From NCBI GenBank assembly GCA_020536535.1, contig JAHLWZ010000460.1:1-36977 (forward strand): DNA of 36,977 bases, read 5' to 3'. Made by a program: the position numbers and the translations under genes. The notes under the pieces were generated by a model. The model saw only the letters and a program-made list of their open reading frames with translations, made no database searches and was not told where the DNA came from. This document shows, piece after piece, positions 1,429 to 34,494 of this stretch. Positions within the stretch are counted from its first letter, which is position 1. Each line of letters begins with the position of its first letter. The stretch comes from Pelomyxa schiedti. Lineage: Eukaryota > Protista > Evosea.

Positions 1429-3172
1429 TGTTGGTTGAACAAAAAAAAAGGGAAATGAGGGAGAGGGGAACAAACACACCGTGGACACAACAGGATCGAA
1501 AACACGCTCAAAGGACTTGGAGCAAACAAGTGATTCTTTCACAAATGGGGACAATGTGTTTGGTGAAGTTCCTTGGAGAAGAATCCCAAAACAAGTGATT
1601 GACTTGGAAAAAAGAGGTCAGGAGAGACGACGAGTGGGAAATGGCATGCACACATGCTCAAACAGTTTGTTGTCTGACCCATGTTCCAGATCCTTGGGAA
1701 CAATCTGGCGGAATATTTCCCAAAAATAACAACTGATTGCGCTCTTCAGTGTGGACGAAATCGAACCCTGATCTGCAAGGATATGCAATCCAATCCACGC
1801 CGGAGGGAACAACAGGGCCTGTGGTTGACAAATGAGATGTGGGGAGAAAAAAAAAAGGATGCCGATGTGAACATACGTCGTTGCATGCAAGGGACCAAGA
1901 AGAAAAGTCAGACAGTCGAGAAGAGAAGTGGCTGGAAATTGTGTAAAGGCAGGAAAGGAATTGTGCCATTCCGGGAAGCGTTTGTGTTGACTGGAATGGT
2001 TGGTACGCACTGCAATGACCAAACCTGTGGAGGTTGCCTTCGTCCACTGACAAATTGACCTTGAAACATTTAGAGGGATAGAAAAACTCATCATGGAGAA
2101 TAACACACACACACACCTGTGAATTGCTGATGATTCCCAACTCTGACAAGTTGCCCTGACTGAGTGCCTCTTTATTGCAAAATATGGTTTGCATTGGAAC
2201 CGGAATTCCAGTTGCCCGCTCGATCTCCTTCTTGAATGTTTCGACAGTGTCTTTGGACAGGTCCAGGTTGATGTCAAAGTAAAACATTGTCTCCAGTTGG
2301 GTTTGTCCAACAAACTTGGTTCTATCAATTGTCCCTGATACCTCCTCCGGCTCTTGGGCTTGCACCTTGTAAGTGGCACCCGGTATATAATACTTGGTAA
2401 CAACTTTGATCACATCCTTTCTCGCTGTAACCTGTGCGGAGTTTAGTTACCAGTTGAGACTTTGTTCATAGTGTAAAAGGGGGGGTGATACATTTTGGTT
2501 GGGAGAGCAGTCTCTGACTTTGTCACAGCACAACCATGCATAAGCACTGACTTGTGGTTGCTTTTGCGGCGAGGAGGAGGGTGATGCCGCCGCATCAGCG
2601 GGAATCACAGGCGGCGCCAATCTGGACACATCGACGCCGCATTCCTCGAGGGTGTGGACATCAGCCAGGGGCCCATCCACAACCACCACCCCACCGTCGT
2701 CCCCACCCACAAGTGCCAACTCAACGTCACAGTTCTCAACGCGAACACAATCCAACAACGAGGAGCCCGTCGCGGCCACACCACACCACGATGTCGCCGA
2801 CGACGAAGATGACGACGAGGACGAGGACGAGGACACGCGAGGGTGCTTGGGAGGGAGGGGCCTCGCCGCCGTCGCCGACGCGTACGCATCGACAAGGTCC
2901 TCGTGTATCGCGTTTCTGAGGTCCCGAACCGTTGGTCCCCTGCCGCCCTTTCCTTGCTTGAGTGATGTACTCCTGGATTCGCGTTTTTACTGTTAGTCTT
3001 TGTTGGTGTGGCAAAAAGACACACAAGCACAAACAACAAACACCAAACGGTGTTTTTTTTTTTTTTACAATAATGACCTTGTTCCGTTGAATAACCAGAA
3101 ACAATTGTAGTGCACTACCACGAGTGTTGGTGCGTCGTCGACGCCCGAGGTCATCGAGGTGTCGCTGGCCAT
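1429..3172 (-). CDS. 5' part of a tandem paralog of the Ubl/vWA/E2 fusion gene (N-terminal ubiquitin-like domains); truncated by the gap
   Basis: Start MASDTSMTSGVDDAPTLVVVHYNCF (ATG 3172) is homologous to MASDTTSAAPSRDSPSLVVNYSCF at 10800. Contains Ubl-like DLSKDTVETFKKEIERATGIPVPMQTIFCNKEALSQGNLSELGI. 1429-2060 is almost identical to 9097-9735. Confidence 0.8.
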
Positions 3173-3245: not shown

Positions 3246-4617
3246 TTAAACTGAACACTTTGTGTGCACAATAGCTGGTCCACATTCGTTGTACTCTTCC
3301 TCTGTTATCCACTTCAAATCAGGTTGCGAGGCCATGGTACATGCCCCCCACCAGGTGCAGTTCCTTGGATTCGGCCTTGTTGTCACCCTTGCATTGACTG
3401 TTGTTGGTGCCAGTGCTGACATTTCCCTCTGAAGCCTCTCAGCCAGCCCTGGGAAGTTTGTTGATCCCCCAACAAGCACCATGTTCTCAAACAACTCCTT
3501 CCTCAGCCCAATGTCACACTGAGATATGGCTGTGAAGCAGCTCTCCTGTATTCCAAGTATCTCCATGTGGGCCAGAGAGGGCCTGAACAGAACCTCAGGG
3601 CACCTTATCCTCTCAGTATCAAGGTGGAGAGACTGCCCATCATAGAGCTCATGGTCCTTCTTGAGTGCCTCAGCACCCTTGGCCATCTCAGACTCAAAGT
3701 CAAGGGCCACATAGCAGTTGCACTCTTTTATTGTGCTAATCAGGGGCATCTCTTTGTCAGTGAAGGAGTGACCACGTTGCTCCAGCATGTCCCTCATGAA
3801 CTCATCAAGGTCAAAGCCTGCAAGGTTAATCCTCTGGATTGCGTTTGTAATGGGTGATCCATTGTGGAATGGAACCACTGTGGTTACACCAGCACCAATG
3901 TCAATAACTAGGCCGGTTGTAAGGTCAGTGCAGCTATGAAGGGCACATGAAGGCTGAGATGCCAAGAACAATGCAGCCACGCCAATCTGATTAAACATAG
4001 TTTCTGCAGTCCGGGCCCTGTCTGCTTTGGGGCAAAGGGGTGTGTCAGTGAGGAAAATATTGCACTCTGATGGCTCAACACGAAGCTCTTTGGCAAGTGA
4101 GAAAAATGGAAAAGGAGTTAGGAGAGGGTGGTACCATCGAAGAAGGTGTAGTTCCACACCAACTCCATGTCATCCCAATTTGTGACAAGGCCACGCACAA
4201 CTGGATGAGAAATGGATGCAAACCCTCCTTTCCTGCTTCTGACCCAATCACCCACTGTGCAGGTGATTGGAATTAATTAGTCAACATATCCACAGTATTT
4301 GGCGTCTCCATTAATATTTCCCCCTATTTCCATACCACATAGAACCATCTATAATTCGCAATATAATATATAGTAATATTTAAAACCATAGAGTAGTATG
4401 GATTACACACACCAACGTGGTCTTTTACTGCCATTCCAAATACCTTCCTTTCGTGGCCAACCAAGGACTCGAACAGCACTGGCGAGGCCGTGCCCACCAC
4501 CCCGGCCTTGCATGTGTCCGACCCACAATCTACAACTGCAGTTGGCTTAACCTACCTATAATTATCAAGGCAATCCCACTTAACAAAGGACCCCCATACT
4601 GGAACAGCGGCAGCCAT
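3246..4617 (-). CDS. Divergent actin / actin-related protein (multi-exon)
   Basis: Spliced motifs: VVDCGSDTCKAG (phosphate-1), VFGMAVKDHVVGD (D-loop), HPVVRGLVTNWDDMELVWNYTF, GLVIDIGAGVTTVVP, INLAGFDLDEFM, ERIRCPEVLFRPS, NMVLVGGSTNFPGLAERLQREM and WITEEEYNECGPAIVHTKC, all colinear with actin. Confidence 0.93.
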
Positions 4618-5060: not shown

Positions 5061-8000
5061 TCACGTTCCTTGATTTGTGTGTGAGGAAGGCCAGTGAGAA
5101 AAACAAAAAAAACCTTTGGTGATTTCACGGACCCACTCCTCCATGCTTCTTTTTGCTTCCGCAACTGAAAAGATATGATTTTGTATACTGTGTTCATAGG
5201 CTGTAATAAACGGTGTTAGAGCAACCAATTCACGATAGGGATTGGATCACCTGTTTTATCAGCAAAGAATTGATGGGCCAAAGTGGAATCCAGAGGGTCT
5301 TGCGTTTCAGGGAACAACAACAACCCATAAACGCAATCAAGAACCTGAAAAAAGAGTGAACGAGTGCGAGTTTGAGAGGATTGATAATAAATACCATTGC
5401 CATTGTTGTGTCCGAAGTCCAGTTGCGGCCAAAAATCGAGTGGCAAACACGGCCATACGGATTGATGTTGCAATGAACAATCGGTGTGACGAATCGAACC
5501 TGGAGCGGAGCGGAAAGGGGAAATTGATCGGCCAAAGGAGATAGAGATACACAATAATAATATGACAAACCTCGGGGCTGCAAAGAGGATAATCCACAGG
5601 AAACGAGGCATACAACAACCAACAACCACGAGAATAAGGGCTCGAAGATGGACCCCTCATTATCACTCTCCAAAATCCAACATCCTCCAAACACGGGAAC
5701 ACCTGGGGGTTTACGGTTATTAGTGCCAGAAAACAGTCTGATTGAAAGGCATGAAATCAAACCTGGTAATCCGGATGTGCATGCCTCTGAATTCCGGCCA
5801 ACTCCGAAAGAATTCTTCGGACCTGGTTGGGAGACCTCACAATCCCCGATTCGGGACTTGTGGGTTCTGGTGATGTTGTTTCTGTGGCCTGGCGACTCAG
5901 CGTTGACGCAATAGTCGAACAAGGTTGGGACAACATGGTGGGAAGTTGATGTTTCTGCATCGCAGAGTTGGAAAGTTGATGCCGGGAGTGAAAATCAAAC
6001 CGGAACGAATCTGTCATTGCAAACATCCTTGGGCAGGTTTTTGTATGAATCAAGTCCGGCTTCAGATTTGACCAATGGAACGTCTGCCCTTGGAGGCCTG
6101 TGGTAGTTGTTGGTGATAGTAGACGATGAGTCTTAACATGCCTCATTTCAGAAAATAAGAGCGTTTCCAACTCAACCAACTTGAGTGTGTCTTTCAGTGA
6201 CTCGGGCACGAACGACAACCCTCCTGTGTTGATGTTCAATTCGCGAAAAAAGAAAAGGTTGATTGACCTGTTGCCTTGCAGACGGCATGGAGACCGTGAT
6301 TTTTGCCACCTTCACAAATCATGATGGAGTCCAGAATGATATTGCTCGTCTGCAACAGATTGGCAATTTCGTGTGGCAATTCTTTTGAACATGTGTCTTC
6401 TCCATCTAATTATCGTTAAGGAGATGGATGGATAGTCCACAGTCTGTTACCAGTGAGACATAATATGCGTTTGGTGCACTTAGGCCGTATTTCAGCAAAG
6501 GTGTTCAAGGTGGAAGCTGCTAAATTGATTGCAGAGAAAAGTGCGGTATTGCCTGCAGAAAAGTGTGTAACAATAGAAGGCACCACCCACATTAAACAGA
6601 CCGGTAGCTGCAGCAGATTCAACTTGACTTCTAAATTCCTCAAAAAGAGGAGTAATATCACATTCAAGTGATGGTTCATCAGAAAAAAGTACGAGGCCAA
6701 TTTGAACAGGATAGTTGTAAGCCTCAAGTAAATTTAGAAAGCAGAAAAAACACAGCAGTGGTAACTACCAGTGAGCGATTGATAAACGCATTGAACAACT
6801 GCTTTACAATGTCTAAGCGAGTCATTCTGCAATCTAAACCATCTGGACCTGCGCCACACGCATCAACCTTGAGAGACAGGGCATTGCCCTCGCTGTAAAC
6901 GCAATGCTGTCCCACGAAACTGCGGCACTCAAGGCAGGTCCCAACCTTTATAAAAGTTATCAAACAAATAAGATAAAAGATAGGCTTACTTTTACACCGT
7001 CAGAGGACTCCACGAGATCCCTCCACAGAGAAAATGCACTTGGTGCTAGTCCGGTTTTCAACCAGGTCTTTAACTTGAGAGTCCTCACAGAACATCCCGC
7101 ATCAATGTGGAACTGAACAGGGAGCTCTCCTTTTCCCACATTTACAGTAACATTAACGGATTCTCCTTCATGGAAATCACTTCCATCACCAGCCTCCATT
7201 TGAAGAGTTTCCTTGTTTGTGATGCCATAATCAGAGAGCATGAAACTCCTCTTCAGGCATCGTTCTGGAAAGAGTTTAGATGTGGGAATAAAGCTTGGGA
7301 GACTACTCTTGTGTGTGAGGTGAAACCTCGGTGGAGCATCAATAATTTTGTCTGGAGTGTAAACAGTCGATCCTTCCACAACACCAGAGGCTTCAAGTGT
7401 GGAGTCTGTGCTCAAAACACGCCCAGAAAAAATGATAATGCACTCTCTGGCACTGGGCCCACTTGTGACTGTCGCAAGTGGCAATGCTGAAATCAGAGAT
7501 CCAACTGTGCATTGCTTCCACACTCTCAGGTGGAACGTTTTCAAACCTGCTTGACTGATAAGATCAATGTTGATGAGATCCTGTGGGCCAGTGGAGTGTG
7601 CTTCCAATATCGCTCTGTTCGGTTGCAATGAAGGCCAAAGGCGGGATGAAAGCAAACTGTGAATCTGGGTGGGTCCGGGTTATTCGCGAAGAGAGCGGGA
7701 GATGACAATTTACTTGTGAAATGATGAAACTGGGGTGAACGTCAAGGGTGACATATTCACCACCAGAAGTGTCCAAAGTTGGTACATTGGCCATTTTCTT
7801 GATGAATATTTGCATTGTTGGGATCCGACTGGATTCTGGATGAGGAACCTATTCATGGATCAACAAAAATAAAAGATGAAACTGCTACTTTCTTCCTCAA
7901 TGATGGAAACTTCGGACCATGGAACTTCCGCAACAACAGGGTTTTGTTTTCTTGGACAGACATGATTGACTTCCATTTGTGACTGAAACTGATTGATTTT

Positions 8001-10800
8001 AAAAAAAAAGAAGTTAGCCTTTGGAGTCCATAAGAAGGGGTTCCTCACCAAGAAACTTCCAAAGTTATTTTTGAGCAAATGCCCCTGGATTTGAAGATTT
8101 TCTGCAGGTAATGTCCATTGACAGATTGACACAGCTTGTGATGAATGTGAGTGGTTCGGGGGAATGGATTGCTTTGTTGTACCTTTTCAATCTTCTGGTT
8201 GGCTTCAGCAGTTGGGATGTTCAAGAGAGGAGGTGCAGTCTGGTCGTCAGGCGAAAAACTGTGAAACCTCATTGATGAACTCATGTCCAGTGCCACAATG
8301 ACAGCTTCTTTCACCTGATTTTAAGAGATGATAAAGATGCAACACGGGATGGAGAAGGGAGATGTGTGCCTCTCGTTCATCAACAATCACATCCCTTTTC
8401 GTTGACCCAAGTGTTTTGGCCAGAATCTGTGTGTATGTGTCGTGTCTCAGAACTGGAAGTGTGAAAGGGATCTCTGGGGGAGCCACTTACTTCGGGTTTC
8501 ACGACTTCACATTGTCCTTTGAGAGGGAGGAACAGTTGCACTTCACCAACACTGCAAGGCTGTGGACCGAGGCAGACCGAGTGAGTGGCAGATTCGTCCA
8601 GAGTGATGCAAGGCGTTTGTGCAGTCGAGAGGTTGAGTGTTGCAACAATCCTCAACGCCGGGAATGATGTTCTGGAATGAGACCGAGCCATTTTCACAAC
8701 ACTCTCCCATGCCACTTCTTTCACAGATTGAACAAGCTGTGCCGGGAGGAGGGAGGGAAAAAGAGGAGGGAAGAGGGAAGAGAATGAGGTTGGGTGAAAT
8801 TGAGGTGACTGATGATGAAAATGAAGAAATACCGAGAGAACAGACTGATGTGCACTGTTTGTGGTTTCCGTCTGTGATGTTGTCGTTTGTGTGCACACCG
8901 AAGTGCCGTTCGTTTTCCAGATGATCACTTTGGTCCGATGAATTCATGTGAGTGGAGTGTGTGAGTTGCAGGAAATACCTTGAAGAGCCTTTTGACGTGA
9001 GACAACAAGAAGGGAAAGAGTTTGCTTGTCTGAGACAGCGCATTGTCTTTCAGCCTTTGCAATCGAAGTCCTGTTCAAAGGCCGGTTCTGATGTTTTGTT
9101 GGTTGAACAAAAAAAAAGGGAAATGAGGGAGAGGGGAACAAACACACCGTGGACACAACAGGATCGAAAACACGCTCAAAGGACTTGGAGCAAACAAGTG
9201 ATTCTTTCACAAATGGGCACCGTGTGTTTGGTAAGGTTCCTTGGAGAAGAATCCCAAAACAAGTGATTGACTTGGAAAAAAGAGGTCAGGAGAGACGACG
9301 AGTGGGAAATGGCATGCACACATGCTCAAACAGTTTGTTGTCAGACCCATTTTCCAGATCCTTGGGAACAATCTGGCGGAATATTTCCCAAAAATAACAA
9401 CTGATTGCGCTCTTCAGTGTGGACGAAATCGAACCCTGATCCGCAAGGATATGCAATCCAATCCACGCCGGAGGGAACAACAGGGCCTGTGGTTGACAAA
9501 TGAGATGTGGGGAGAAAAAAAAAAAAAAGGGTGCCGATGTGAGCATACATCGTTGCATGCAAGGGACCAGGAAGAAAAGTCAGACAGTCGAGAAGAGAAG
9601 TGGCTGGAAATTGTGTAAAGGCACGAAAGGAATTGTGCCATTCCGGGAAGCGTTTGTGTTGACTGGAATGGTTGGTACGCACTGCAATGACCAAACCTGT
9701 GGAGGCTGCCTTCATCCACTGACAAATTGACCTTGAAACGCGATTTAGAGGGATAGAAAAATGCATGATGGCGAGTAACACACCTGTGAACTGCTGGTGA
9801 TTCCCAACTCTGACAAGTTGCCCTGACTGAGTGCCTCTTTATTGCAAAATATGGTTTGCATTGGAACCGGAATTCCAGTTGCCCGCTCGATCTCCTTCTT
9901 GAATGTTTCGACAGTGGCTTTGGACAGGTCCAGGTTGATGTCAAAGTAAAACATTGTCTCCAGTTGGGTTTGCTCAGTAAACGTCACTTCCTCAGTTGTG
10001 TCTGACACCACTTGTACGGACACACTTTGGGCTTCCTCCTTGTAAGTGGCACCAGGGATAGGATATTTAGTTGAAACTCTTATCACATCGCTTCTTGTTG
10101 GAACCTGTGGTTTGATTACTACTAATGATAATAATTATTAATTACTATTTGTTTCCTTTCTCATCTAGAAGAGGAAATACATTTTGGTTGGGAGAACCAT
10201 CCCTCGCTTTATCACAGCACAACCAAGCATAAGCACCGACTTGCGAGGAGGAGGGCGATGCCGCCGCATCGGCGGGAATCACAGGCGGCGCCAATCTGGA
10301 CACATCCACGCCGCATTCCTCGAGGGTGTGGACATCAGCCAGGGGCCCATCCACAACCACCACCCCACCGTCCCCGGTCACAAGTGCCAACTCAACGTCA
10401 CAGTTCTCAACGCGAACACAAGGAGATATCGTAGCAGAAGACACGGATGATGACGACGTTGCTGTCGATGTAGGGTGTTGGTGTTGTCGCTGGCCGACAT
10501 CAACGGCGGCGGTACTAGTACTACAACTCGGGGATGAGCAGATACTGAGTAAGTCATTGCATATCGCGTTCCTGAGGTCTCTCACTGTGGATCCCCTGCC
10601 AACTGATACTTTCCTATGCAACGTGGTTATATCATATTATGGTGTCAAGATCTTGGGGTTTTTTTTTTTTTGTGTCCGTTTAACTGTTGTGGGAGGTCGC
10701 GATGTTTTTACCTGGTTCCCTTCAACCAAAAGCAACTGTAGTTGACTACGAGTGAGGGTGAGTCGCGTGACGGTGCTGCCGAGGTGGTGTCGCTCGCCAT
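5061..10800 (-). CDS. Large multi-exon fusion protein: N-terminal Ubl domains - uncharacterised region - vWA domain interrupted by ~3-4 ubiquitin-like domains - C-terminal UBC (E2) domain
   Basis: E2: RRILSEL...WRVIMRGPSSSPYSRGCWLLYASFPVDYPLCSPE/VRFVTPIVHCNINPYGRVCHSIFGRNW (catalytic Cys present). vWA MIDAS: IVALDMSSSM (~8290), RLDIVKQLFNAFINR, GNTALFSAI, RILCLT/DGED. Ubl: MQIFIK..TLDVHPSF, IIFSGRVLSTDSTLEASGVVEGSTV, LSDYGITNKETL. GT-AG introns link the exons I traced (e.g. 5703-5762); not every junction was verified. Confidence 0.8.
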
Positions 10801-11015: not shown

Positions 11016-14000
11016 ATGGCAACGGTATCGCACACGTTCGAGAAAAAAACGTTCCACGGCCCAACGTAACTATTCGGGTGTATTTTATTGACTAACGGCA
11101 CCTCAGGTTTTGCTCCTACTGTGGTAAATTTATTTGGGGATTGTATTTGCAAGGTACCCGTTTATATATACATAATTCGTTTAGGTGCTTACTTGTTCGT
11201 TTTAGGCTATTCATGCACAGGTTACCTGAAATACCCTTTCCTAAATTTTAAAATTTTGCCTTGCCCTGCTATACGAACTAAAGTCAATAATAATTAATTA
11301 GGATGTACGTACACTACTCACAAACGGTGCCGCCGGCTGGCCCCTCCCAGCTGCCGGCGTCATGTTTTGGTTGCCGCAGCTCCAACTCCTCCAACACCCA
11401 CTCCAACACCTACTACTCATGCAACTCCCACTTCTAGCCCAAGCCCTACTCCCACTGGCAGTGCTTCTTCTTCTGGTGCCAAGACGAAAACGGGAAGTGC
11501 TTCTGGATCCGTGGGGAAAGGAAGTGTGCACATTGAAATCTCCTCTGGCTCTTCCTCTTCCAGCTCCAAAAGTCTGGATTTGCATCCCACTGCACCATTG
11601 GTCGTTGAATCACCTGTTGTGACAACGGCATCAGCCGTTGTGTCAACACCTGCTCGGGCTTCATCTCCAGAACACCCAAAGCCGACATCTACACCTTCCT
11701 CTCCATCAGCACCACTTACTGCTCAACCTGCAACTACAGCTTCAACCTCCACAACACCCAGTGCATCAGCTTCCGCATCACAGGTTATTGATGATGCAGT
11801 CATTGCCAGGATAATGGAACTTGGGTACTCTCATGACCGGGCTATTTATGCTCTTTCGCATTCCGTATTATACTTTTCAGTCCTACTTCTTCTTATGTCA
11901 ATAGGACTTCAATGAGTCTCGAGCTATTGATTGGCTGCTTAATCACCTTGAAGATGCTGTGGATGCAGCACCTTCGAACACACCAGCATCTCCTGCGACT
12001 TCCACCATGGCCACACCATCCCCTGTTAACAAGTCTTCAACAACAGAAAAGCTACCGACAACTTCTGTGTGCACATCTACATCATCCGCGGCACAAACCA
12101 GCCCATCTAGTGCTTCGGAACCAACTTCCAAGCTAATTCGAACATCAGCTCGTGGAGCTCTGTTGCGTTCCAAGATGTATGAGGGTTTGGGGAAGGGAAA
12201 TAAAACTTCAACTTACAATGATTCAAGGTTACAGGCTAGAGAGTATGTAGACTTTTTTTTTCTTACCATCTAAGTTTAAACCCTTCTGTGGTGTTCCTTG
12301 TACAGACGGGGTAAATCAATCTCATACAATTTTGAAAACTAACATTTCTAAAGCTGGCCTGGGAATGTCAATGGCTGACGAAAATGAATTTGATGATGAA
12401 AATTACCATGAAACCGATGCCGATTGGTTCTTAGATGAAGGTGATGAAGCTGACGAGAGGCTATTCCAAGTTATTGAAAGAAGCACTCTGGCAAGAAAGA
12501 TCGAACTGGTTAGGTGATTGAGCGATCTTTTTAGATTTTAACAAATTTCAGACAATAGCTGACCTTGCTCTTGAACTCAATATGAGTCCTGAAGATGCTG
12601 GGTTGCTCTTGAAATTCTTTGGGTAACTTCACATCAATTTATATTGCATTTATGCAATAAGGTGGAAGAAGGAATCTCTTGAACACTCTTATTGGGATAG
12701 CCCCGAAAAATATTGCGAAAAAGCTGGAATCATTTTTGTATACCCCTTGCCACAGGTCACTATTATTACTTTAACATTTTCACAGGGAACAACAAAAGAG
12801 GTAGTACCGGACGTAATTGAATGCCTTGTTTGCTGCACAGAAGTTCCTGGTGCGCAATCTTGTGCATTATCTTGTGGGCATCGCTATTGCTTTGACTGCT
12901 GGAAGGGGCATCTATCAGCAATGGTTCTTCCCTTTCTATGTTGTTGGTGAAATATTTTTCATCCCGTCTTCATTTCCTTCCCTATCGCAGGTAACTTCCC
13001 TTGGTGCTGAAGTAATCTCCTCAAAATGTATGGCCCCAGGGTGCCCATGCAAGGTACCACATACAACCTGGAAGATTGCCGAGCCCAAAGATTATGAAAG
13101 GTTCCTTTTTCCTTTCCGACACCATTAATTGAAAACAGATACTTGTACTTCCTTACTAAAGATTTTGCTGAAAAGAGTGGGCAGTATGTTTTCTGTTCAA
13201 ACGAATCTTGTGGCAAAGTCATACAATTCTTTGGTAAGCTAGTGTGATATTTCTGTACCCTTACATTTTCTTAGGCGGATACAAATCAGCTGATGTAGTC
13301 GAGTGTTTGTGTGGTCAACGTTTTTGGTTAAAATTCCCCCTTTTTCCCCTTCGATATATAACCAAACCTTCAGTTTTGCATGCGGGAGAGAGAAGCATAA
13401 TCCCGTTACTTGCACCCAAGTAGGCCAAGATAGAAACATTTTTGATGAATCCTAACCCTCTGTGAATAGTTTGATACATGGAAAGCAAAGAATAGTGGGG
13501 ACGAGGAAAGTATCAAACTTGTCAATGCCACAGCCAAGCCCTGTTTCCATTGCAGTAATGAATATTATTATTTTATTTTATGAGGTACTAAACTGTGCCA
13601 CCAGAAATGCCAACCGAGAGGAACCAGGGCTGTAATCATATGACATGCTCCCGATGTAGAGGAGAATGGTGCTGGATGTGCAGGGGTGATTGGAAGGTTG
13701 CCATGTACCCCCCCAGTACTCCTACTGACACGCTTCCAGACTCATGGGTCACACACAGGGGGTTACTTCAGTTGTAACAAATATGATACCTCAGACGCAA
13801 AGAAGATTGATGACCAATCTGCCCGTGTTCTCGAGGATAACAAAAAGATGGCTTTCTTCTTTGAGAGGAAGGCATGCGCATCGTTTTGCTGTGGAATTAA
13901 TGCATCTCAAAGGTTCATTGGGCATGAAAGCAGTGCCAACCAGTTGCTGCGGAATAAAGCCAAAATGTTGGCTGATGCTCAAGCATATGGTCAACAAGCC

Positions 14001-14800
14001 CACATCAATTATGATGCTGTTGGGGAAGCAATAAACTTAATTGTCGAGGTATGCCACTCGGTCTCTGAGTTAAACCTCATACTGTACTTTAAGTGCCGCG
14101 TTATCTTGAAATACACCTATGTGTATGCCTTTTTCATGCCAGAAACATGGAAGGAGAAGAACTTCTTTGAGTACCTCCAAGGTTCAGTTTCACTCTCCCA
14201 GTTTCTATGCTTTGTTCTGAAACAACGAATACAGCCAATGCGGAGGGCATCACCGAGAGGTTAAACAAACTCGTACAAACGCCAGTTGAGACCCTTAACC
14301 TCGACGAACTAATGAACCTGATCCGGGTCACCCGGAAGTTCATCAACAACTTGGTTAAAGGAATTGAAGAAGGACTCCCAGAAGTAGAGCGCACTCCCGC
14401 ACCCGCTCCCGAACCCGATCCCGCAAGTAAGTCACTCCCATTCCCAACAACCCAACCAAACCACTACAGTCAACAAACAGCTGAATAACCCACAACAATA
14501 TACAATACAACAACAGCAATACCGGACCGCGTGAAGCACCCGCTGCACAAGCACGAATTAGTCCGCAACTATGCGGACAACGGGTGGCGATGTGATGGTG
14601 CTGACAGGAAGGGTGGCTGCAGGCGTGGAATCACCGGATTTGGACAGACCTCTGGGATGTCGAGATGGAGATGTGCTTCGGTATGTGTGTTGTGAGAGCA
14701 ACAACCAAAAAAAAAAATTACAACAACCCATCTAATGCCTTGCTTGCAGTGTGACTATGACCTATGTGACAAATGTATTCTAGACAAGAAATCGCCCTAA
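11016..14800 (+). CDS. Ariadne-family RBR E3 ubiquitin ligase with N-terminal C1 domain, S/T/P linker, UBA, RING1-IBR-RING2-Ariadne and C-terminal ZZ-like zinc finger
   Basis: Spliced N-terminus [80 protein letters not shown]1 [57 protein letters not shown]2 [22 protein letters not shown]. Ariadne [30 protein letters not shown]. Tail [25 protein letters not shown]; stop at 14798-14800. Confidence 0.92.
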
Positions 14801-14958
14801 CGAACGTGCAAACATCAACCAACGCTCACAGAGCTGTTGCCCTGATCATAGTTGTAAAGAATTATAGTCGATCGACGTGCTGGTCTTTTCTCAAAGAAAG
14901 TCCCTTTGATTAGATCACCGGGTAGAAGAACAAGAAAATAATAGTGTGCCGGTTTGGT

Positions 14959-16990
14959 ATGATGGAGACCCTGAGCGGGGCATTGCAGTCACTGATCGAG
15001 CCACGGCCCCACCTTGTGGTTCTCGTCGATTGTTCCGACTCCATCCCGCCCGCGGACTACGCGGTCGTCCGCGACAGCGTGCTGCCCAGGCTCCTGTCGC
15101 GCACCCGCGGCCTCACCCGCGGCGTCCTCGAGTTCGCGGGCAACGGCGAGGCCCACCCCGTGTGCCCCCTGACCACGGACGACGCGCAGCTGGCCGACTC
15201 GGTGCGCCCGCGCGCGGGCCCCACGGAGCGCCCCGACGGCCGCGCGTTCCCGGGCATGATGCGGCGCCGCGAGGGCGCCTCCAACGTGTCGTTCGCGGTC
15301 TCGTACGCCAGCGGGTACTTCAGCCGGGCCAAGCAGGGGGCGTGCGTGGTGGTGACGGGGTCGGCGGCGGGCTACGGGCCCATAGTACCCCTGCCCTTCG
15401 CGAGGGTTGTGTTCATGGGCGTCGGCGGCGGGGTGACCGCCGAGGCGCTCTGGGAGAAGTTCCCCGGTGCCCAGTGTTTCCACTTTCGGGACGGCACTGC
15501 TTTGTACGAGGCGCTGAGGGGGCTGACGCCCATTGTGGGTGCCTCTACGACTACTGGCACTGGCACTGGCGGTGGTGGTGCTATTGCAACCGGAAACCAA
15601 CTAGTTCAAACACCACTAACAACAACAATGACAACAATAAATAATAGTAGTACACAAGAGCAGCTGGTACAACAACTACAAAGTGAGAAGAAAGCTTTGC
15701 TGGATCGCCTCAATCGGTGTGAAGAACAGTACAGACAGCTCCAGGTATCTATTGCCCCCTAGACTCGTGGAGTGGCGGTCATTATCCTCATTCTCACTTC
15801 ACACCACAGCAACTCATTGACACAATGATTTCACTTATTCCTGCCGATATCTCAGACTTCTCATTGGAACGACGCCTTGGAACAGGCGCTGGAGGAGCGA
15901 CCTTTAAAGTGCAATTCCACAGAAACTGCTCTTCAACATCAACAAGCGGACAGTATGCATCCTGTCCCAATTCAAGCAGGACAACCACAATGATGGTCAT
16001 GAAAGTTGTATTCAACTGGGAGAACACACCAGGGCAAACAATGCTGAGGCAGAAGTATATGGCCGAGTGTGTCATTCTCTCTTCAATCCCGCATCATCCC
16101 AACGTTGTTCACCCGCTCGGTGCGATCGTACTCCCAAGGTTTCTTGTGCCTTCAAAATATCTTACTAAAACCATGTAGGTTACCATCTGAGTTTATCGAA
16201 GCTATCTCAAAAGAGAAGAACATTTTCCAGGACACATCACTCAACCGATCACTTGGGTTCCTCATGCCCTTCTGTGGGATCCCCTTGTCTCCCTTTTTAT
16301 CCTCAGTTGATACCGTAAGTGTTCGTTCCTTCACATATTTTTTTACCATCTTCCGTCTCCTTTGCTCAGATGCACCTCACGAGAGTGGTAGTGGATATTC
16401 TGAGTCAGGCACTCAAGGCGATTCATCACATTGAGTCCCACATGATTGTTCACAAGTGTGTTTCCTTGATATTCCTCTCCACCAACATACCAACCAGGGA
16501 CATCAAGCAAGACAACCTCCTGATTGACCCGGAAACCAGAAAACTGACTGTGATCGACTTTGGGGAAGCACAGCGGTGCCTCAACAGCAACCTTGACAGC
16601 ATGATATCCACAACCGCACAACCGTGGGCCAACCCAGGCACCATTCCGCCGGAACTCAGCACCATCCTGAGGAACCTCACCAGGACCAACACCGCGTCCA
16701 TGTTCTCATACGCAAAGTGCGATTCCTTCGCGCTGGCACTCACGTTCTACGATTCCCTCCTTCCGGAACATTCCAAATTCATTGGAACCCCACAGAACGC
16801 CGACATGTCACAGTTCACAACAGATGCTCTCCTCTCGTCGTTCCCTCTCCCTTCTTCCGTTCTCTCCACCGCCACATCAACCCTTCATCCAGTCCTTGTT
16901 GGGATGATGCATCCTGACAAATCCAAGAGGTTGTCAGCTGATCAGGCCCTCTCCGTCCTCATCGTTGTCAGTGCCACATCCTCATCATAA
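14959..16990 (+). CDS. vWA domain - coiled coil - PINK1-like Ser/Thr kinase, copy 1
   Basis: vWA LVVLVDCSDS (DxSxS). Coiled coil QQLQSEKKALLDRLNRCEEQ. Kinase LGTGAGG, VMKVVFNW, HHPNVVHPL, NRSLGFLMP, spliced HKDIKQDNLLI, LTVIDFGEA, NPGTIPPEL, FSYAKCDSFALA, MMHPDKSKR. Confidence 0.85.
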
Positions 16991-17058
16991 TGAAAAGATG
17001 ATGAACAATCCAAAAATTTTTGTTTCGACTAAACATCGAATCGATACGGTTTTAATTG

Positions 17059-19701
17059 ATGGCAATGCTCGGGCCGGGGCCCTCCCTCGCCATCTTTGTT
17101 GACAGCTCGGCAGCCGTCTCGCCCGGGGACTACGCTGTCATCCGCGACAGGGTGCTGCCCAAGCTCATCGCGTGCACAGCCGGGCTCCAGCGCGCCGTCC
17201 TCGCCTTCCACGGCCCAGACCGCGTAGACACGGTGTGCCCCCTGGTCGCCGACGACCTGCAGCTGACGGACTCGCTGCGCCCGCGGCTCCCGCCCACCGA
17301 GCACCCAGGCGGCACCCGCCACGCGTTCCCCGGGAAGATGCAGCACCNNNNNNNNNNNNNNNNNNNNNNNNNNNNNNNNNNNNNNNNNNNNNNNNNNNNN
17401 NNNNNNNNNNNNNNNNNNNNNNNNNNNNNNNNNNNNNNNNNNNNNNNGACACGGTGTGCCCCCTGGTCGCCGACGACCTGCAGCTGACGGACTCGCTGCG
17501 CCCGCGGCTCCCGCCCACCGAGCACCCAGGCGGCACCCGCCACGCGTTCCCCGGGAAGATGCAGCACCACACCCGCGACGGACCAACGGACGCAGGGATG
17601 ATAGGCGCCCGCGCCTTGGAGTGGGTGGGGGAGCCGGACGTGGGGGTGGTGCGGGCGTGCGTGGTGGTGACGGGGGGGCCGGCGGCGACTGGGCCCGGCG
17701 GGGGGGCGGCGGCGGGGAGACTGCCACCCGGGAGGGTGGTTGTTATTGGGGTGGGGATGGGGAATGGCGGCCGAGGGGCTGGCGAGGAAGTTCCCTGGGG
17801 CTCGGTGTTTCCACTTTGGGGATGGCGCTGCTTTGTACAGGGAATTGGACGGGTTGTGGCCTGTTTCGCAGAGAGGGAGCTGTGCCGTCGCTGCAACTGT
17901 GGGTGTTATTTCATCTGAAAACAAACAAGCATACCAAAATAACAAATAACAAATAACAAATAACAAATAACTGCAAGTACAGCAGGAAAGCGGGCTGGTG
18001 CAACAACTTCTAGGGGAGAAGAAAGCGTTACTGGATAGCCTGACTCGGTGTGAAGAAGAGCTAAGAATTTACCAGGTATCTCCACTATTGTTCCTCCGTA
18101 CATTGACCGATCACCGCTTCGCAGGCTCGTTGTGAACAAGATGCGAGAAGCTACAAGGTCTTCCTTTTTTTTCTCTTTTATCCTCTCCCTTGTCGCACCC
18201 CTAATTGCTCAAAATCAAAGCAGACTCGTATGAGTCAGTGCGAAGAAGAGTTGAGGAACTCTGAGGTATTTTTGGCGGTCATTATCCTCATTCTCACTTC
18301 ACAGCACAGTGGCTCATTGACACAATGACTTCCCTGATCCCTGCCGATATATCTGATTTCTCGTTGGCCAGACTTCTTGGAACGGGTACCAGTGCAGCGG
18401 CCTTTGAAGTGCAATTTCACAGAAACTCCTCTTCACCACCGAGCGGAGGTAATTCCAATGGAACAACGATGATGGTCATGAAAGTTGTGTTCAACTGGGA
18501 GAACATTCCAAGGCAAACGATGCTGAGGCAGAAGTATATGGCCGAGTGTGTCATTCTCTCTTCAATTCCGCACCACCCCAACGTTGTTCACCCGCTCGGT
18601 GCGATCGTACTCCCAAGGTTCCTTTCTTTTGCTCTCAGGGCACTTTGATGATAACCACTCATGAAAGGTTGCCGCCCAACTTTGTCGAAGCGATACCGAA
18701 AGAGAAGAACGTTTTCCGAGAACTGTCACTCAACAGATCACTCGCGTTCCTCATGCCCTCTTGTGGTATCCCCTTGTCTCACTTTTTGTCTTCCCTTGAT
18801 CCCGTGAGTGCTTTGATTTCCTTTCACATATTTTTCCTCATCCTTGGTTGAACCAGATTCACCTCACGACCGTGACAGTGGATATTCTGAGTCAGGCACT
18901 CAAGGCGATTCATCACATTGAGTCCCACATGATTGTTCACAAGTTTGCGATTTCTCTTCACATTCATCTCTCCACCAACATACCAACCAGAGACATCAAG
19001 CAAGACAACCTCCTGGTTGACCCGGAAACCAGAAAACTCACTGTGATCGACTTTGGGGAAGCACAGCGGTGCCTCAACAGCAACCTTGACAGCATGATAT
19101 CCACAACCGCACAACCGTGGGCCAACCCAGGCACCATTCCGCCGGAACTCAGCACCCTCCTGAGGAACCTCACCAGGACCAACACCGTGTCCATGTTCTC
19201 ATACTCAAAGTGCGATTCCTTCGCGCTGGCACTCNNNNNNNNNNNNNNNNNNNNNNNNNNNNNNNNNNNNNNNNNNNNNNNNNNNNNNNNNNNNNNNNNN
19301 NNNNNNNNNNNNNNNNNNNNNNNNNNNNNNNNNNACCGTGGGCCAACCCAGGCACCATTCCGCCGGAACTCAGCACCCTCCTGAGGAACCTCACCAGGAC
19401 CAACACCGTGTCCATGTTCTCATACTCAAAGTGCGATTCCTTCGCGCTGGCACTCGCGTTCTACGATGCCCTTCTTCCGGAACATTCCAAATTCATTGGA
19501 ACACAACAGAACGCCGACATGTCACAGTTCACAACAGATGCTCTCCTCTCGTCGTTCCCTCTCCCTGCGATTCTCTCAGCCACCACTCCACGATCATCCA
19601 CGCTTCATACAGTACTTGTTGGGATGATGCATCCTGACAAATCCAAGAGGTTTAACTCTGAAGGAGCCCTGTCACAGCTTACGCAATCATTATTCTCCTA
19701 G
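17059..19701 (+). CDS. vWA - coiled coil - PINK1-like kinase, copy 2; interrupted by two gaps and an apparent +1 frameshift near 17760 (sequencing error or pseudogene)
   Basis: Paralogous to copy 1 throughout (AIFVDSSAAV, KFPGARCFHF, MVMKVVFNW, HKDIKQDN, YSKCDSF). Homology switches frame at gtggggatggggaatggcg. Confidence 0.75.
17937..17971. repeat. (AAATAAC)5 heptamer tandem repeat, probably intronic in kinase copy 2
   Basis: aaataacaaataacaaataacaaataacaaataac read directly; it places stop codons in the vWA frame. Confidence 0.85.
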
Positions 19702-23087: not shown

Positions 23088-26000
23088 TTAGAAGGCTTTG
23101 GCAGCTTTGATCTTCTTTGCCGTGTCAATGGCTGGTGCTAGGGCTTGCGGGGTGCTGGCTTTGCGTAGGAAGGGGTGTGTTAGCATGTCTACGGCGTTGG
23201 GCCTAGCGTCCGGTGATTTCTCCAGGCAGGTGTTGACAAATGACACGAACTCAGGGGACCACGCCTCAGTCGCGTTCTTGAGGGGCGGAACTCCTTTGGT
23301 GGATATGAGGAACAGTGCGCGGAGCGGAGGGAACTCCATGTACGGGGGCTCTCCTTCAGCCATCTCCATGCACATGATGCCGGTGCTCCAGACATCCACC
23401 TTGGTGTTGTAATTCTGACCACTGTGGGATTTGAGACATAATTTTAAAAGGAAACTCCAACAAACCGAATAACTTCAGGACACATCCAATAACTACAGAC
23501 GAAGTTAGATTGCTTACAAATAAAGATAAAGCAGTTAGCTTACGGGGTTCCAACTATTGTTGCCCTCTGTTTCTTCTGTTGAGTTAATTGGGCTGCGTAT
23601 CCTATGGGAGAAAAGTAAGAAATTAAGAAACATTGGTGCAAAACTAGTACCAAAGTCTGCCAGTTTGACCGAACCCTCCAGTGATAGAAGAACGTTGTCG
23701 CTTTTCACATCTCTAAAGGATAGTTAGGCAGGACAACAGGTTATGCTGTTACCGGTGAATTCTATGCAGACTGTGTACATACGACAGTGCTTTAATAACA
23801 CAGAGAGTAATCTATGTTGTGTTCATTTCTGTCTTAGGTAATTCTACTTAGATTACATATGCAATTTGATCTTCCTTTAGTTTCAATTGAGAAAATTGAT
23901 CAAGTATTTCGGTCAGGCATCCACCAGACATGAACTGCAGAACGTGGGTCAGAAGAAAAGGCACAACATGAATGGCTGACCTCCATCACAACCCATAATC
24001 TATCTTTGACAAGGTAACTGTCAATATATTCCACAATATGTGGATGCCGACTTGTTTTCATGATTGCAATCTCCGCTGTTATTAGTCTGAGGTTTTGTTG
24101 TGTTAAAGTCATTTTCTTGACAGCAACAGGTCGGCGGCTACTCTTGTGGAAACATAGGAAAATTTCACCTGCCGCACCCTCTCCAATCTTCTTGGATTCT
24201 TGATAGACCTGAAGAAAGGCACTATTATTAGTGGGAGAAAGAAGGAACTATCGATACTTCATTAGGGTCTCCTCTGGCAACCATGTCATGAATGTTCGAT
24301 GGCGCTTCTTCGGGGAGAGGTGTGTTTTCTAATTCTGGCTCGGGAATGGCTCCAGAGGATGGTGACGAAGCAGAAGACCCAGTGGGCCGTGAAACGGAGA
24401 AAATAAGGTTATTTGAATCCTGGTTTTGTTGTGTTGCTTGAGATGTACTGTACGTTTCAAGGCAGTTAATCATTTCCTCTGGGTGGTCCAGAACTTCTTC
24501 TTTTTTGAACTAAGACTTATGAGATTGTTGTGCGCATTTTTTGAGGTACACATACCCCACCACCAATAATCAGGGCTTCCCATTCAGGTGGAAGGCCAAC
24601 AAAACCCGTCCTTGCATTAAAATCGACATGAATGTGGTGCTGCACATTGTATGGAACTCCAACTTACACAGCAGAACCTACTAACAATACGGTACTCTTG
24701 CCTGCTTTCTTTTTTCTAACCTAACCACTGGCACAGACTTATGTCCCTGAGAGTGGTACCACCCCACCACCAATAATCAGGGCTTCCCATTCAGGTGGAA
24801 GGCCAACAAAACCCGTCCTTGCATTAAAATCGACATGAATGTGGTGCTGCACATTGTATGGAACTCCAACCGATAATGGCGCTACTGGCTTTGCAAATAC
24901 TTTCCATTGCTAAAACAGTCAGAATTCTACATACGCAAAGGAGCACACCTGCTGAAGTTTTGATAAAAAGCTTGTCTTCCCAGTATCATGGTCAGTCGTT
25001 GACACAACAAGAGGGCGTTGAACAGGTATAGTTTTCATGGGCATCCCTCTTCCTGAAATAGGCGTGGCTGGAGTAGAGGGTGGTGGGCTGGTACCACTCT
25101 CAGGGACATAAGTCTGTGCCAGTGGTTAGGTTAGAAAAAAGAAAGCAGGCAAGAGTACCGTATTGTTAGTAGGTTCTGCTGTGTAAGTTGGAGTTGGAGG
25201 AGGGGAAGAGGAAGGTGATCTGTCAAAGGCTGTTTCGTCAAACCAGTCTTCACCATTAGGGTTTGAGGTGGAAGTTGATGATGAAGTAGTAGTAGAGGGA
25301 GTAGCAGTCAAAACACTTGGTGATTGTGGTGATGAGGGGGAAGTGGGTGATGGGACCTCCCCGGGAGTAGGGGAGGGAGACGTAACTTGTCGTGTTGTGG
25401 AGGTGGGAGGGAGAGGGGGTGGAGGAGGACGTGTTCCAGGAAGAGGAGGTTTGGCGGTTTTTAATTGTTTAGGTGGGTTTGATTGAGGTGGGGGTGGAGG
25501 TGGATTACCAGGAGGGGCTGGTGGAGTCTAATAGCAGGTTTAAATAAATTCTGAACGAGAAAATGTACCGTTTTGGTTGCTGGTAAAGGCCTAATAGACG
25601 TTAATTGAGAATACCAGTATGAAGGAGGTACCTATTCACACTAGCAGTTCTTGTCACCCTTGACGGAATTGCAGGTGGCGTAGTGCTGCCTGTTGGGGTC
25701 TGCGGAATTGGCCGTGAAGGCGGTGGCATCAGTAATGCTGACATGCGTGCTATTTAAGGATAAGGACTTTGGTTTATAGGGTTATTATTGGTACCAGGGT
25801 TTGAAGCAAGGCTGCCATTCGTAGACGTGTTCGCGCAAGTGGAGCCGTTAGTGGTGGATGGTTGGTACAAGTTTGCCCCGCCGTACCCACTGTATTCCGG
25901 GGACTGCTGCAAGAGAAAAATAATCACAATCAGGACTATTCACCCACGCATGCAAAACAAAAAGTATTTATTATTGTTTTTAATAAAGCAAGCGCAAATT

Positions 26001-33302: not shown

Positions 33303-34494
33303 TCACGAGGAAAATATTTGATTCTTGGGCCTTAGGGGTTCCTTTGAGGCAATTTGCTTGGTGCAGGCTGGGCATTTGGCTATGTGTTTGGCACACAGGG
33401 AGCAAAGTACTGTGTGGCCACAGGGATGGACCCTCACCTCCCTTTTGTTCTCAAAGCATACAATGCACAGTGAGCCCATTGAGAGCGAGGTCTGGGGGTG
33501 CAGTGTAGACAGTGCTTGTAGCATGAGGGCTTTGTGAAGTGCCTGTGTTACTGTGGTTGTTGCTTCATTGAGGAAGCTGGGGGTCAGGGCTGAGAGGTCA
33601 TCTATTTTATCATCCAAGAGGGATAAAGTCTGGCTGAGAAGCGTGGCTTTCTGGGTGGCTTGTTCCAGTGTGTTGTGGTGTGCCGACAGTTCATTTTGCA
33701 GCTGTTGAACTTCGCCTTCAAGGGAATGCAACTCAGAATGAAGACGGGAAAGAATCCCCTGAACTCGAGTCAATTCTTCAGCAAGTTCTGAGAATGCTAC
33801 TTGGCATTCTCTGCCGATTTCAGTGAGACAAGAGGGTAGTGTGATGTCTCTATCTGTGTTTGCTGGGATAGGTTGTGAATCTAGAATACTGTCACTTGTG
33901 GGGTGCAGTTGCTCTGGAGAGCATAGTTGGTGGGTTTGTGATACAGGTAGTTTTGCATGGCCATTAGATTGGGTTCCTGGTTGTTGGTGCCTGGAACAGA
34001 TTGCCTGAGAAAGCTTCTGTTGTACACAAGTGAGAGTAACAACAGCAGTTTCAATTGTGTCAGATGAGTACAACTCAGGAGGACCACAAAACGTTTTCGC
34101 TGTCACTTTCTTCTCTAGAATTTGTAGCTGCCCTTCAACCTGGGTTTGTTAGGATCTTCTTAACGAAAATTTGGTCACTGCACTTTGACATAGTCTTAAA
34201 CACAGATTCCAAATAAATTACCTCAGTTGTTCTTGTTCGAGTAGTTTCAATCTGTCCCATAATTGTTGCCTTTTCTCCCTTCAACCTCTTGGTTGCATCG
34301 TAAGAGCTCTTCATGTCAGCCTCTAACCCCCTCCCATAATCGCGGCACCTGCGCGCTGCAGCCGCAGCCGCCAAAGACGCAGATACCGCCACCTCTGCCA
34401 ACGATGACACTCTGTCCAAATCTCCAGTTTTGTTCCTAGTCTCAGATACAACCGTTGCCGATACGCCCCTACGTCGGGGCTTCCTTTTCCCCAT
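33303..34494 (-). CDS. Coiled-coil protein with C-terminal C3HC4 RING finger (IAP/MGRN-like RING type)
   Basis: CIVCFENKREVRVHPCGHTVLCSLCAKHIAKCPAC. Heptad region LAEELTRVQGILSRLHSELHSLEGEVQQLQNEL. One intron (~34139-34221) joins the MGKRKPRRR exon. Confidence 0.85.

Follow-up and report, generated by a model that had tools for sequence, protein, structure and literature searches.

The stretch analysed here (the window) is the whole 36,977-nt contig JAHLWZ010000460.1 of Pelomyxa schiedti. Its forward strand carries, at 14959-16990, a gene of five exons encoding a 609 aa protein in which a vWA domain, a coiled coil and a PINK1-like kinase domain follow one another (Table 1). The spliced product is identical to the database protein P0002 (Pelo_5786) of P. 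schiedti. All four introns are of the GT..AG type (65, 40, 55 and 42 nt), and the fourth splice joint creates the HKD catalytic loop. Each of them is skipped in contigs of the RNA libraries X3 and X4, which come from one sample, and a single RNA contig that starts at 15347, within the vWA domain, and ends at 16788 spans all four. Because RNA contigs cross every intron, the vWA-kinase fusion is transcribed and is not an artefact of the gene model. Exon 1 is covered by RNA at 14941-15195 and 15285-15741; the interval 15196-15284 has no contig cover and the first half of the vWA domain is not tied to the same transcript. At the third joint 58 bases were read as skipped, with three letters in between; one changed letter would reconcile this with the 55-nt intron. 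About 1% of the letters differ between RNA contigs and window, so that the contigs could stem from another allele or from a third, nearly identical copy.

The model of residues 10-194 has the Rossmann-type vWA fold, and its best match in the VIA fold search is a vWA domain (Z 19.8, rmsd (root-mean-square deviation) 2.2, 157 aligned). The same residues align with the clear vWA domain of the paralogue P0022, and the ESM Atlas returned vWA-type clusters for the N-terminus. The Pfam VWA_2 match is under the cut-off (E 0.006), and a sequence search of this region against the PDB gave one weak unrelated match and none to a solved vWA domain. Modelled alone the domain reaches a pLDDT (predicted local distance difference test) of 72, and it is poorly folded within the full-length model. 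The metal ion-dependent adhesion site, whose positions we take to be DxSxS..T..D, is partly degenerate in Pelo_5786, with DxSxS kept, Thr replaced by Ser and no Asp after strand 4. The fold is common to the intracellular vWA domains of Rpn10, TFIIH p44/Ssl1 and BatB (Z 15-20 across the class), and no vWA subtype is assignable. A Gly/Thr linker leads to the long helix 230-271, which VIA aligns to the N-helix region of PINK1. The vWA-coding stretches of this gene and of its tandem copy (14980-15530 and 17050-17900) stand out in 1-kb bins with 58-61% GC, against 41-49% around them.

The kinase domain is modelled confidently in the full-length structure prediction, and Lys327, Glu348, Asp447, Lys449, Asn452 and Asp466 are all present. 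Its Pelomyxa family is represented by 43 near-complete domains, kept from 62 domain matches after 19 partial ones had been dropped (pairwise identity 39-94%). The six catalytic residues (Lys, Glu, Asp, Lys, Asn, Asp) are kept in 38 of these, and at least one is lost in the other five; the loop HKD, found in Pelo_5786 in place of HRD, occurs in 3 of the 43. Comparison of 257 kinase codons with the tandem copy gave a ratio of nonsynonymous to synonymous substitution rates (dN/dS) of 0.31 (Fisher p 3e-7), i.e., purifying selection.

Table 1. Features of the Pelo_5786 gene and of the rest of the window
Feature	Position	Strand	Remarks
Exon 1, residues 1-262	14959-15744	+	vWA domain, Gly/Thr-rich linker, start of coiled coil
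Intron 1, phase 0, 65 nt, GT..AG	15745-15809	+	connects vWA/coiled coil to kinase; skipped in RNA contigs of X3 and X4
Exon 2	15810-16138	+	Gly-rich loop, beta3 Lys327 (16002), FNW, Thr335-Pro336, alphaC Glu348 (16065), HPN, beta4
Exon 3	16179-16314	+	Ins3 (insertion 3), beta5, hinge, alphaD
Exon 4	16370-16455	+	alphaE, beginning of HKD catalytic loop
Exon 5	16498-16990	+	Asp447, Lys449, Asn452, DFG (16556), activation segment with Asn491, YxKxD, alphaF-alphaI, stop
vWA domain, residues 10-194	14986-15540	+	weak Pfam match, alignment to P0022 vWA, model and fold search
Long helix / coiled coil, residues 230-271	15646-15836	+	high pLDDT; interrupted by intron 1
Insertion-3-like segment, ~residues 371-395, beta4-beta5	16134-16248	+	split by intron 2 (16139-16178)
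Tandem paralogue P0004 (Pelo_5787)	17059-19701	+	same vWA / coiled coil / kinase order; kinase 79% identical
RBR E3 ligase gene (UBA ... IBR/RING)	~11250-14800	+	IBR E 5e-11, weak UBA
Pieces with ubiquitin-like and E2 domains	~5230-9050	-	ubiquitin-like 6963-7679 (E 1e-5); E2 5233-5994 (E 8e-9)
Weak ubiquitin-like domain	1661-2446	-	
Actin-family gene	3249-4169	-	
Hydrophobic open reading frame, 308 aa	19797-20720	-	probably multi-pass membrane protein; no Pfam match
Second set of kinase motifs	~23600-23750	-	conventional catalytic loop and DFG
Coiled-coil RING protein	33306-34148	-	

Likeness of the kinase domain to PINK1

A sequence search of the PDB with the spliced protein placed PINK1 in the top five positions (E 6e-11 to 1e-8), followed by GSK3 (4e-6). 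Using a profile of 16 family sequences, 12 PINK1 sequences came first (53-59 bits) and Pim-1 next (44.6). PINK1 also filled nine of the top ten Foldseek rows for the kinase model, with FGFR2 interleaved, and the top 12 entries of the VIA search (Z 24.0-25.4, 294-320 aligned), where the next kinase aligned over 254 residues (Z 23.9). In these fold searches the identity to the PINK1 structures was 17-22%. By sequence, profile and fold, PINK1 is the best match among characterised proteins, and the likeness is beyond chance. Searches with single exons were weak or misleading (exon 2 had no PDB match, exons 4-5 with their intron put GSK3 first), and the ESM Atlas returned generic kinases only.

Specifically, the segment at the Ins3 position is modelled as two short ordered helices (pLDDT 85-92). 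The stretch that starts at HPN and closes with beta5 spans 44 residues in Pelo_5786; 13 PINK1s have 45-50 there, and 12 outgroup kinases a median of 22 (21-41). The 13 PINK1 sequences were labelled from their motifs, one of their clusters having a Hydractinia Pink1-like member, and all form one clade. TcPINK1 numbers were mapped through motif offsets from the PDB alignment and the numbering of PMC5679756. Asn394 is thus equivalent to TcPINK1 Asn287, which lies 4 A from residue 205 (PMC5679756), and Asn491 to Asn385, which is required for ubiquitin phosphorylation (PMC6039469). The spacing from beta3 Lys to alphaC Glu is 21 residues, as in PINK1, and aromatic residues stand at Lys+3 and Lys+5. 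Apart from fold, Ins3 position and length, this spacing and the two Asn equivalents, Pelo_5786 has in common with TcPINK1 (8UCT/7MP8), PhPINK1 (6EQI/7T4K) and human PINK1 (9EIH) the FN motif, YxKxD and a helix before the N-lobe.

The first-pass annotation, made on the letters of the window, had proposed a PINK1-like kinase outside animals with an insertion-3-like segment, fused to a vWA domain and coiled coil instead of a targeting region. These points hold: the seven motifs it quoted all lie in the spliced product where it had placed them, the insertion is ordered and of the right length and position, and the vWA fold match, the confidently modelled helix and an acidic N-terminus agree with the proposed architecture. 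Placement in an unrelated kinase group, which would have spoken against it, was found neither in the profile searches nor in the trees described below.

Departures from PINK1

PINK1 is defined by insertions 1 to 3 (Ins1-3) and a C-terminal extension, Ins3 and Ser205 being required for ubiquitin (PMC5679756). Phosphorylation of Ser202/228 kinks alphaC and orders Ins3 (PMC8828467), and TOM20 binds the interface between the N-terminal and C-terminal extensions (10.1101/2023.12.23.573181). The Ser205/228 position (beta3 Lys+9) is Pro336 in Pelo_5786 and Pro in 32 of the 43 family domains, while it is Ser or Thr in 13/13 PINK1s; a Thr stands one residue earlier (Lys+8, here Thr335) in 37/43. The PxALP motif of Ins3 is present in 12/13 PINK1s and in 0/43 family domains. 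At the Gly285/Arg286/Asn287 positions Pelo_5786 has Ser-Leu-Asn, and Gly285 and Arg286 are mostly not kept in the family. Mutation of five TcPINK1 residues drastically lowers ubiquitin phosphorylation (PMC6039469): Asn385 is kept in Pelo_5786, Ile210 is Leu, and Glu209, Asp381 and Tyr429 differ. Asp381 is replaced by Gln, Tyr429 by Ile (from the PDB-search alignment) and the adjoining Lys382 by Pro; Glu209 and Asp381 are variable among the 13 PINK1s too, the latter kept in 5/13. Ubiquitin binding, named in the first-pass annotation as the role of Ins3 in PINK1, is therefore unsupported for Pelo_5786, given Pro for Ser205, Ser/Leu for Gly285/Arg286 and the missing PxALP.

Pelo_5786 is also without Ins2, having 10 residues from alphaC Glu to His (PINK1 median 22, range 9-32, some PINK1 rows likewise having no Ins2), and without the C-terminal extension, with 19 residues past the alphaH-alphaI Arg against 73-131 in 12/13 PINK1s. 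As to Ins1, Pelo_5786 has a low-complexity beta2-beta3 loop (pLDDT <50 at 306-316); Ins1 is largely absent in TcPINK1 (PMC5679756). The first 35 residues hold 1 basic and 5 acidic residues, whereas by the same crude count 11/13 PINK1s have at least 5 basic ones, so that an acidic N-terminus and a vWA domain replace the presequence. Hydropathy does not separate PINK1s from Pelo_5786, whose peak sits in a vWA strand. Further differences are Glu for Cys after DFG and HKD in the catalytic loop. PINK1 is single copy in animals, while Pelo_5786 belongs to a multigene family.

The NKF3/PEAK proteins are kin to PINK1 in kinome trees. These pseudokinases (SgK223, SgK269) have an N-helix/C-terminal module like that of PINK1 (PMC8828467). 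In contrast, Pelo_5786 keeps all catalytic residues, does not show the degenerate motifs of pseudokinase type characteristic of NKF3/PEAK, and lacks a helical extension at the C-terminus with which an N-helix could pair. No PEAK/NKF3 entry was among the matches listed (60 sequence and profile rows and the fold lists), which excludes nothing.

Paralogues, wider superfamily and neighbouring genes

Two protein searches gave 49/49 and 22/22 matches in P. schiedti, with at least 52 distinct close paralogues. The N-terminal partners of the kinase among them include Sel1, ankyrin, MORN, AAA, CNH/Vps39, INTS5, small GTPase, SH3 and vWA, some of which may be gene-model fusions, the RNA check having covered Pelo_5786 only. 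Pfam assigns the family kinase domains to Pkinase only and listed no ubiquitin-family match for 22 close Pelomyxa proteins. The NCBI name of the paralogue P0066 is 'PTEN induced putative kinase 1', and the likeness to PINK1 had thus already been caught by automatic annotation. The tandem paralogue P0004 crosses the assembly gaps 17348-17447 and 19235-19334, both flanked by repeated sequence; the truncated vWA and duplicated motif of its model are likely assembly artefacts. Where Pelo_5786 has intron 1, P0004 apparently has three introns and two small coiled-coil exons (18077-18309), a difference that appears to be a loss or an internal duplication with the frame kept.

The wider relationship was studied with an exhaustive profile search yielding 369 proteins at E of 1e-10 or lower; the top 150 of them were considered and 30 looked up: 8 from Pelomyxa, one each from Trimastix marina, Gefionella okellyi, Sycon ciliatum and Argonauta hians, one Hydractinia PINK1 and 17 others. 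Many relatives carry Asn at beta3 Lys+4, Gly-Asn before APE (Asn at APE-7) and Tyr-x-Lys-x-Asp (Tyr at alphaF-Asp-4). The Ins3 kinases of T. marina (P0081), G. okellyi (P0163), the sponge S. ciliatum (P0111), the mollusc A. hians (P0130) and metagenomes have the insertion and this motif set in common with Pelo_5786; they are mostly without Ins2 and show modular fusions to ankyrin, ARM, SPRY or ubiquitin domains. P0130 gave ankyrin matches only against the PDB. Trp at APE-9 marks the Pelomyxa/Trimastix branch (18/18 Pelomyxa-labelled rows, 0/13 PINK1).

Profiles in both directions join this group to PINK1. One built from 14 non-PINK1 relatives scored the PINK1s of the PDB at 183-211 bits, other single kinase domains at up to 126.5 and a two-domain EGFR construct at 149, and one built from 25 such relatives gave 179 bits for Pelo_5786, 163-220 for PINK1s and 58-114 for outgroups. 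A PINK1-only profile gave Pelo_5786 88.5 bits, outgroups 23-63 and other protist or metagenome relatives up to 152. In a 71-row tree with the insertion kept, from which two candidates had been dropped because the motif pattern missed them, Ins3-bearing kinases stood apart from the 12 outgroups with 88 in the Shimodaira-Hasegawa-like approximate likelihood ratio test (SH-aLRT). A 46-row tree was then computed under a mixture model, with 25 of the 71 rows (four of them outgroups) and the Ins3 columns removed. Here the superfamily branch of Pelomyxa kinases, PINK1 and other Ins3 kinases is supported at 100/98, PINK1 forms a separate clade (100/99), Pelo_5786 falls inside a Pelomyxa + Trimastix clade (97/91), and the group nearest PINK1 consists of Gefionella P0163 and three other proteins (89/80, unstarred). 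Neither best tree joins Pelo_5786 with PINK1. The approximately unbiased (AU) test rejected PINK1 and five sampled close-family rows as one clade (p 5e-5); PINK1 with the 13-row Pelomyxa/Trimastix clade, a group named after the tree had been seen, was not rejected (p 0.13). Because of the trees and of the PINK1-only scores, Pelo_5786 is placed by sequence comparison as a relative of PINK1, though not the nearest one.

The sponge and mollusc kinases lie outside the PINK1 clade; some animals therefore have uncharacterised PINK1 paralogues, and the superfamily has several old branches. Of 45 relatives scanned, with the top five families shown for each, 3 carry a ubiquitin-family domain (no background rate), and two of these belong to the group nearest PINK1. 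P0154, P0177 and P0110 are Ins3 kinases with a ubiquitin or ubiquitin-like fusion, P0154 beginning with a near-complete ubiquitin without the Gly-Gly end. Together with P0163 they are better candidates for pre-animal ubiquitin kinases than Pelo_5786, as is P0149, which with P0163, P0154 and P0177 is among the closest relatives of PINK1. A complex prediction of kinase residues 270-605 with the ubiquitin domain (1-76) of P0154, from another organism, scored 0.01 and 0.00; run without an alignment or folded controls, it is evidence neither way.

The window is rich in ubiquitin-system genes. An RBR ligase gene, which we take to be Ariadne-type and not Parkin, lies upstream, its end some 160 bases short of the kinase start, and carries an additional pair of Cys-rich exons at the C-terminal side. 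A functional link between it and the kinase was considered and set aside as likely chance, as the kinase family lies on many contigs (the comparison covered this locus). On the reverse strand at ~5230-9050 there is a vWA-like DxSxS motif near 8290, and the pieces of this region possibly form one vWA-UBL-E2 gene (UBL, ubiquitin-like).

Probable function and origin of the Pelomyxa kinases

Taken together, Pelo_5786 is probably a catalytically active Ser/Thr kinase that signals in the cytosol. With its Pelomyxa paralogues, at least 52 in number, it would belong to a likely old Ins3 superfamily of which animal PINK1 would be a separate branch. It is most probably no PINK1 orthologue, and PINK1 itself likely represents a single branch of an older group of eukaryotic kinases and not wholly an animal invention. 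The vWA domain would bind a partner protein and so place the kinase, and the coiled coil may dimerise the kinase or pack on it. The ordered Ins3 and the FNW loop could form the site where a folded substrate protein docks, much as they do in PINK1, and any autophosphorylation would fall on Thr335 or Thr339, not on the Ser used by PINK1. By exchanging the N-terminal module, the paralogues would direct one and the same kinase to other targets. Since one kinase module is reused behind many binding domains, and the organelle of P. schiedti has a reduced import machinery (PMC8887013), a range of targets is a better fit than ubiquitin as the sole substrate at a mitochondrial gate. More likely the substrate is something other than Ser65 of ubiquitin, and the job something other than mitophagy gated by TOM (translocase of the outer membrane).

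Several points weigh against this. HRD is replaced by HKD and the GxN motif by AxN; ordinary kinases come only slightly behind PINK1 in the fold comparison (Z 23.9 vs 25.4, with FGFR2 interleaved by Foldseek); a beta4-beta5 loop of 41 residues in one outgroup kinase indicates that such a loop can arise independently; the superfamily branch reaches only SH-aLRT 88 in the 71-row tree; and the ingroup was chosen by a Pelomyxa profile against 8-12 outgroup kinases drawn from families other than PEAK/NKF3, PLK4, NEK and GAK. The small fold margin, the outgroup loop and the choice of the ingroup could suggest an ordinary divergent kinase whose likeness to PINK1 is convergence or a search artefact, as would the low identity, but this has been largely refuted already and we regard it as very improbable. 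The grouping survives removal of the insertion, reciprocal profiles part ingroup from outgroup, profile-profile alignment is colinear through Ins3, and independent marks agree (FN after beta3 Lys, GN before APE, YxKxD, longer activation and alphaEF-alphaF segments). The variant motifs, together with the five family domains that have lost a catalytic residue and the coiled coil adjoining the kinase, would also suit a catalytically weak or dead scaffold of the PEAK type; with the six catalytic residues present, HKD common to three domains and the low dN/dS, hardly any weight is left to this.

The closest competitor, still unlikely in our view, is a PINK1-like kinase of ubiquitin or ubiquitin-like proteins, in which Ins3 and the FNW loop would dock the ubiquitin fold, Thr335 would replace Ser205/228 and the vWA domain the mitochondrial anchor. 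Ins3 position and length, both Asn equivalents, the Lys-Glu spacing, the two aromatics and the frequent Thr at Lys+8 would fit it, as would the ubiquitin-family fusions among relatives and the ligase gene ending just upstream. However, the Pro at the Ser205 position, the loss of Gly285/Arg286 and PxALP and the changes at Asp381, Tyr429 and Lys382, each needed in TcPINK1, speak against it, with the reservation that few PINK1s keep Asp381; Thr-Pro before alphaC can be a mere helix cap, and ubiquitin-family matches are missing from the list for close Pelomyxa proteins. A divergent true PINK1 orthologue, which the first-pass annotation may have implied, that lost its mitochondrial parts with organelle reduction and then expanded, would agree with PINK1 as the best characterised match, with the larger clade that the AU test did not reject, with the name of P0066 and with the reduced organelle of P. 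schiedti, for which PMC8887013 gives, of TOM/SAM, only Tom40, Tom60, Sam50 and Sam37. This origin is improbable, since both trees keep Pelo_5786 away from PINK1, the AU test rejected the close-family grouping, the PINK1-only profile favours other protist and metagenome proteins, and sponge and mollusc Ins3 kinases fall outside the PINK1 clade.

Concerning novelty, PINK1 is listed among metazoan-specific genes in PMC3789837 and reported absent from the related archamoeba Entamoeba in PMC9796589, while Ins3 has been termed unique to PINK1 kinases (PMC5679756). Our literature searches, with most subscription journals outside their reach, found no paper on non-animal PINK1-like kinases and no described function for the Trimastix, Gefionella, sponge, mollusc or metagenome Ins3 kinases. 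CDD or PANTHER may, we presume, already group the Pelomyxa Ins3 kinases with PINK1. The vWA fusion, taken as a special architecture at first, proved to be one among many, as the same module occurs in paralogues with Sel1, ankyrin, MORN, AAA, CNH/Vps39, small-GTPase and SH3 partners, which limits the significance of Pelo_5786 itself.

The Ins3 kinases of Amoebozoa, a metamonad and a malawimonad, together with the animal paralogues outside PINK1, suggest an order of events in which Ins3 came first, and Ins2, the C-terminal extension, the Ser228 switch and the PxALP/GRN signature were gained later on the PINK1 branch. With such an order the origin of ubiquitin kinase activity becomes testable with soluble natural enzymes. 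A bolder scenario, to which we give a small chance, would make PINK1 a twig of an Ins3 superfamily that is old and pan-eukaryotic and that originally served to dock and phosphorylate ubiquitin-fold proteins, the Pelomyxa enzymes being cytosolic ubiquitin or ubiquitin-like kinases with swapped N-termini. If that were true, phospho-ubiquitin signalling would predate animals, Parkin and mitophagy, and would operate in an anaerobe that has no conventional mitochondrion.

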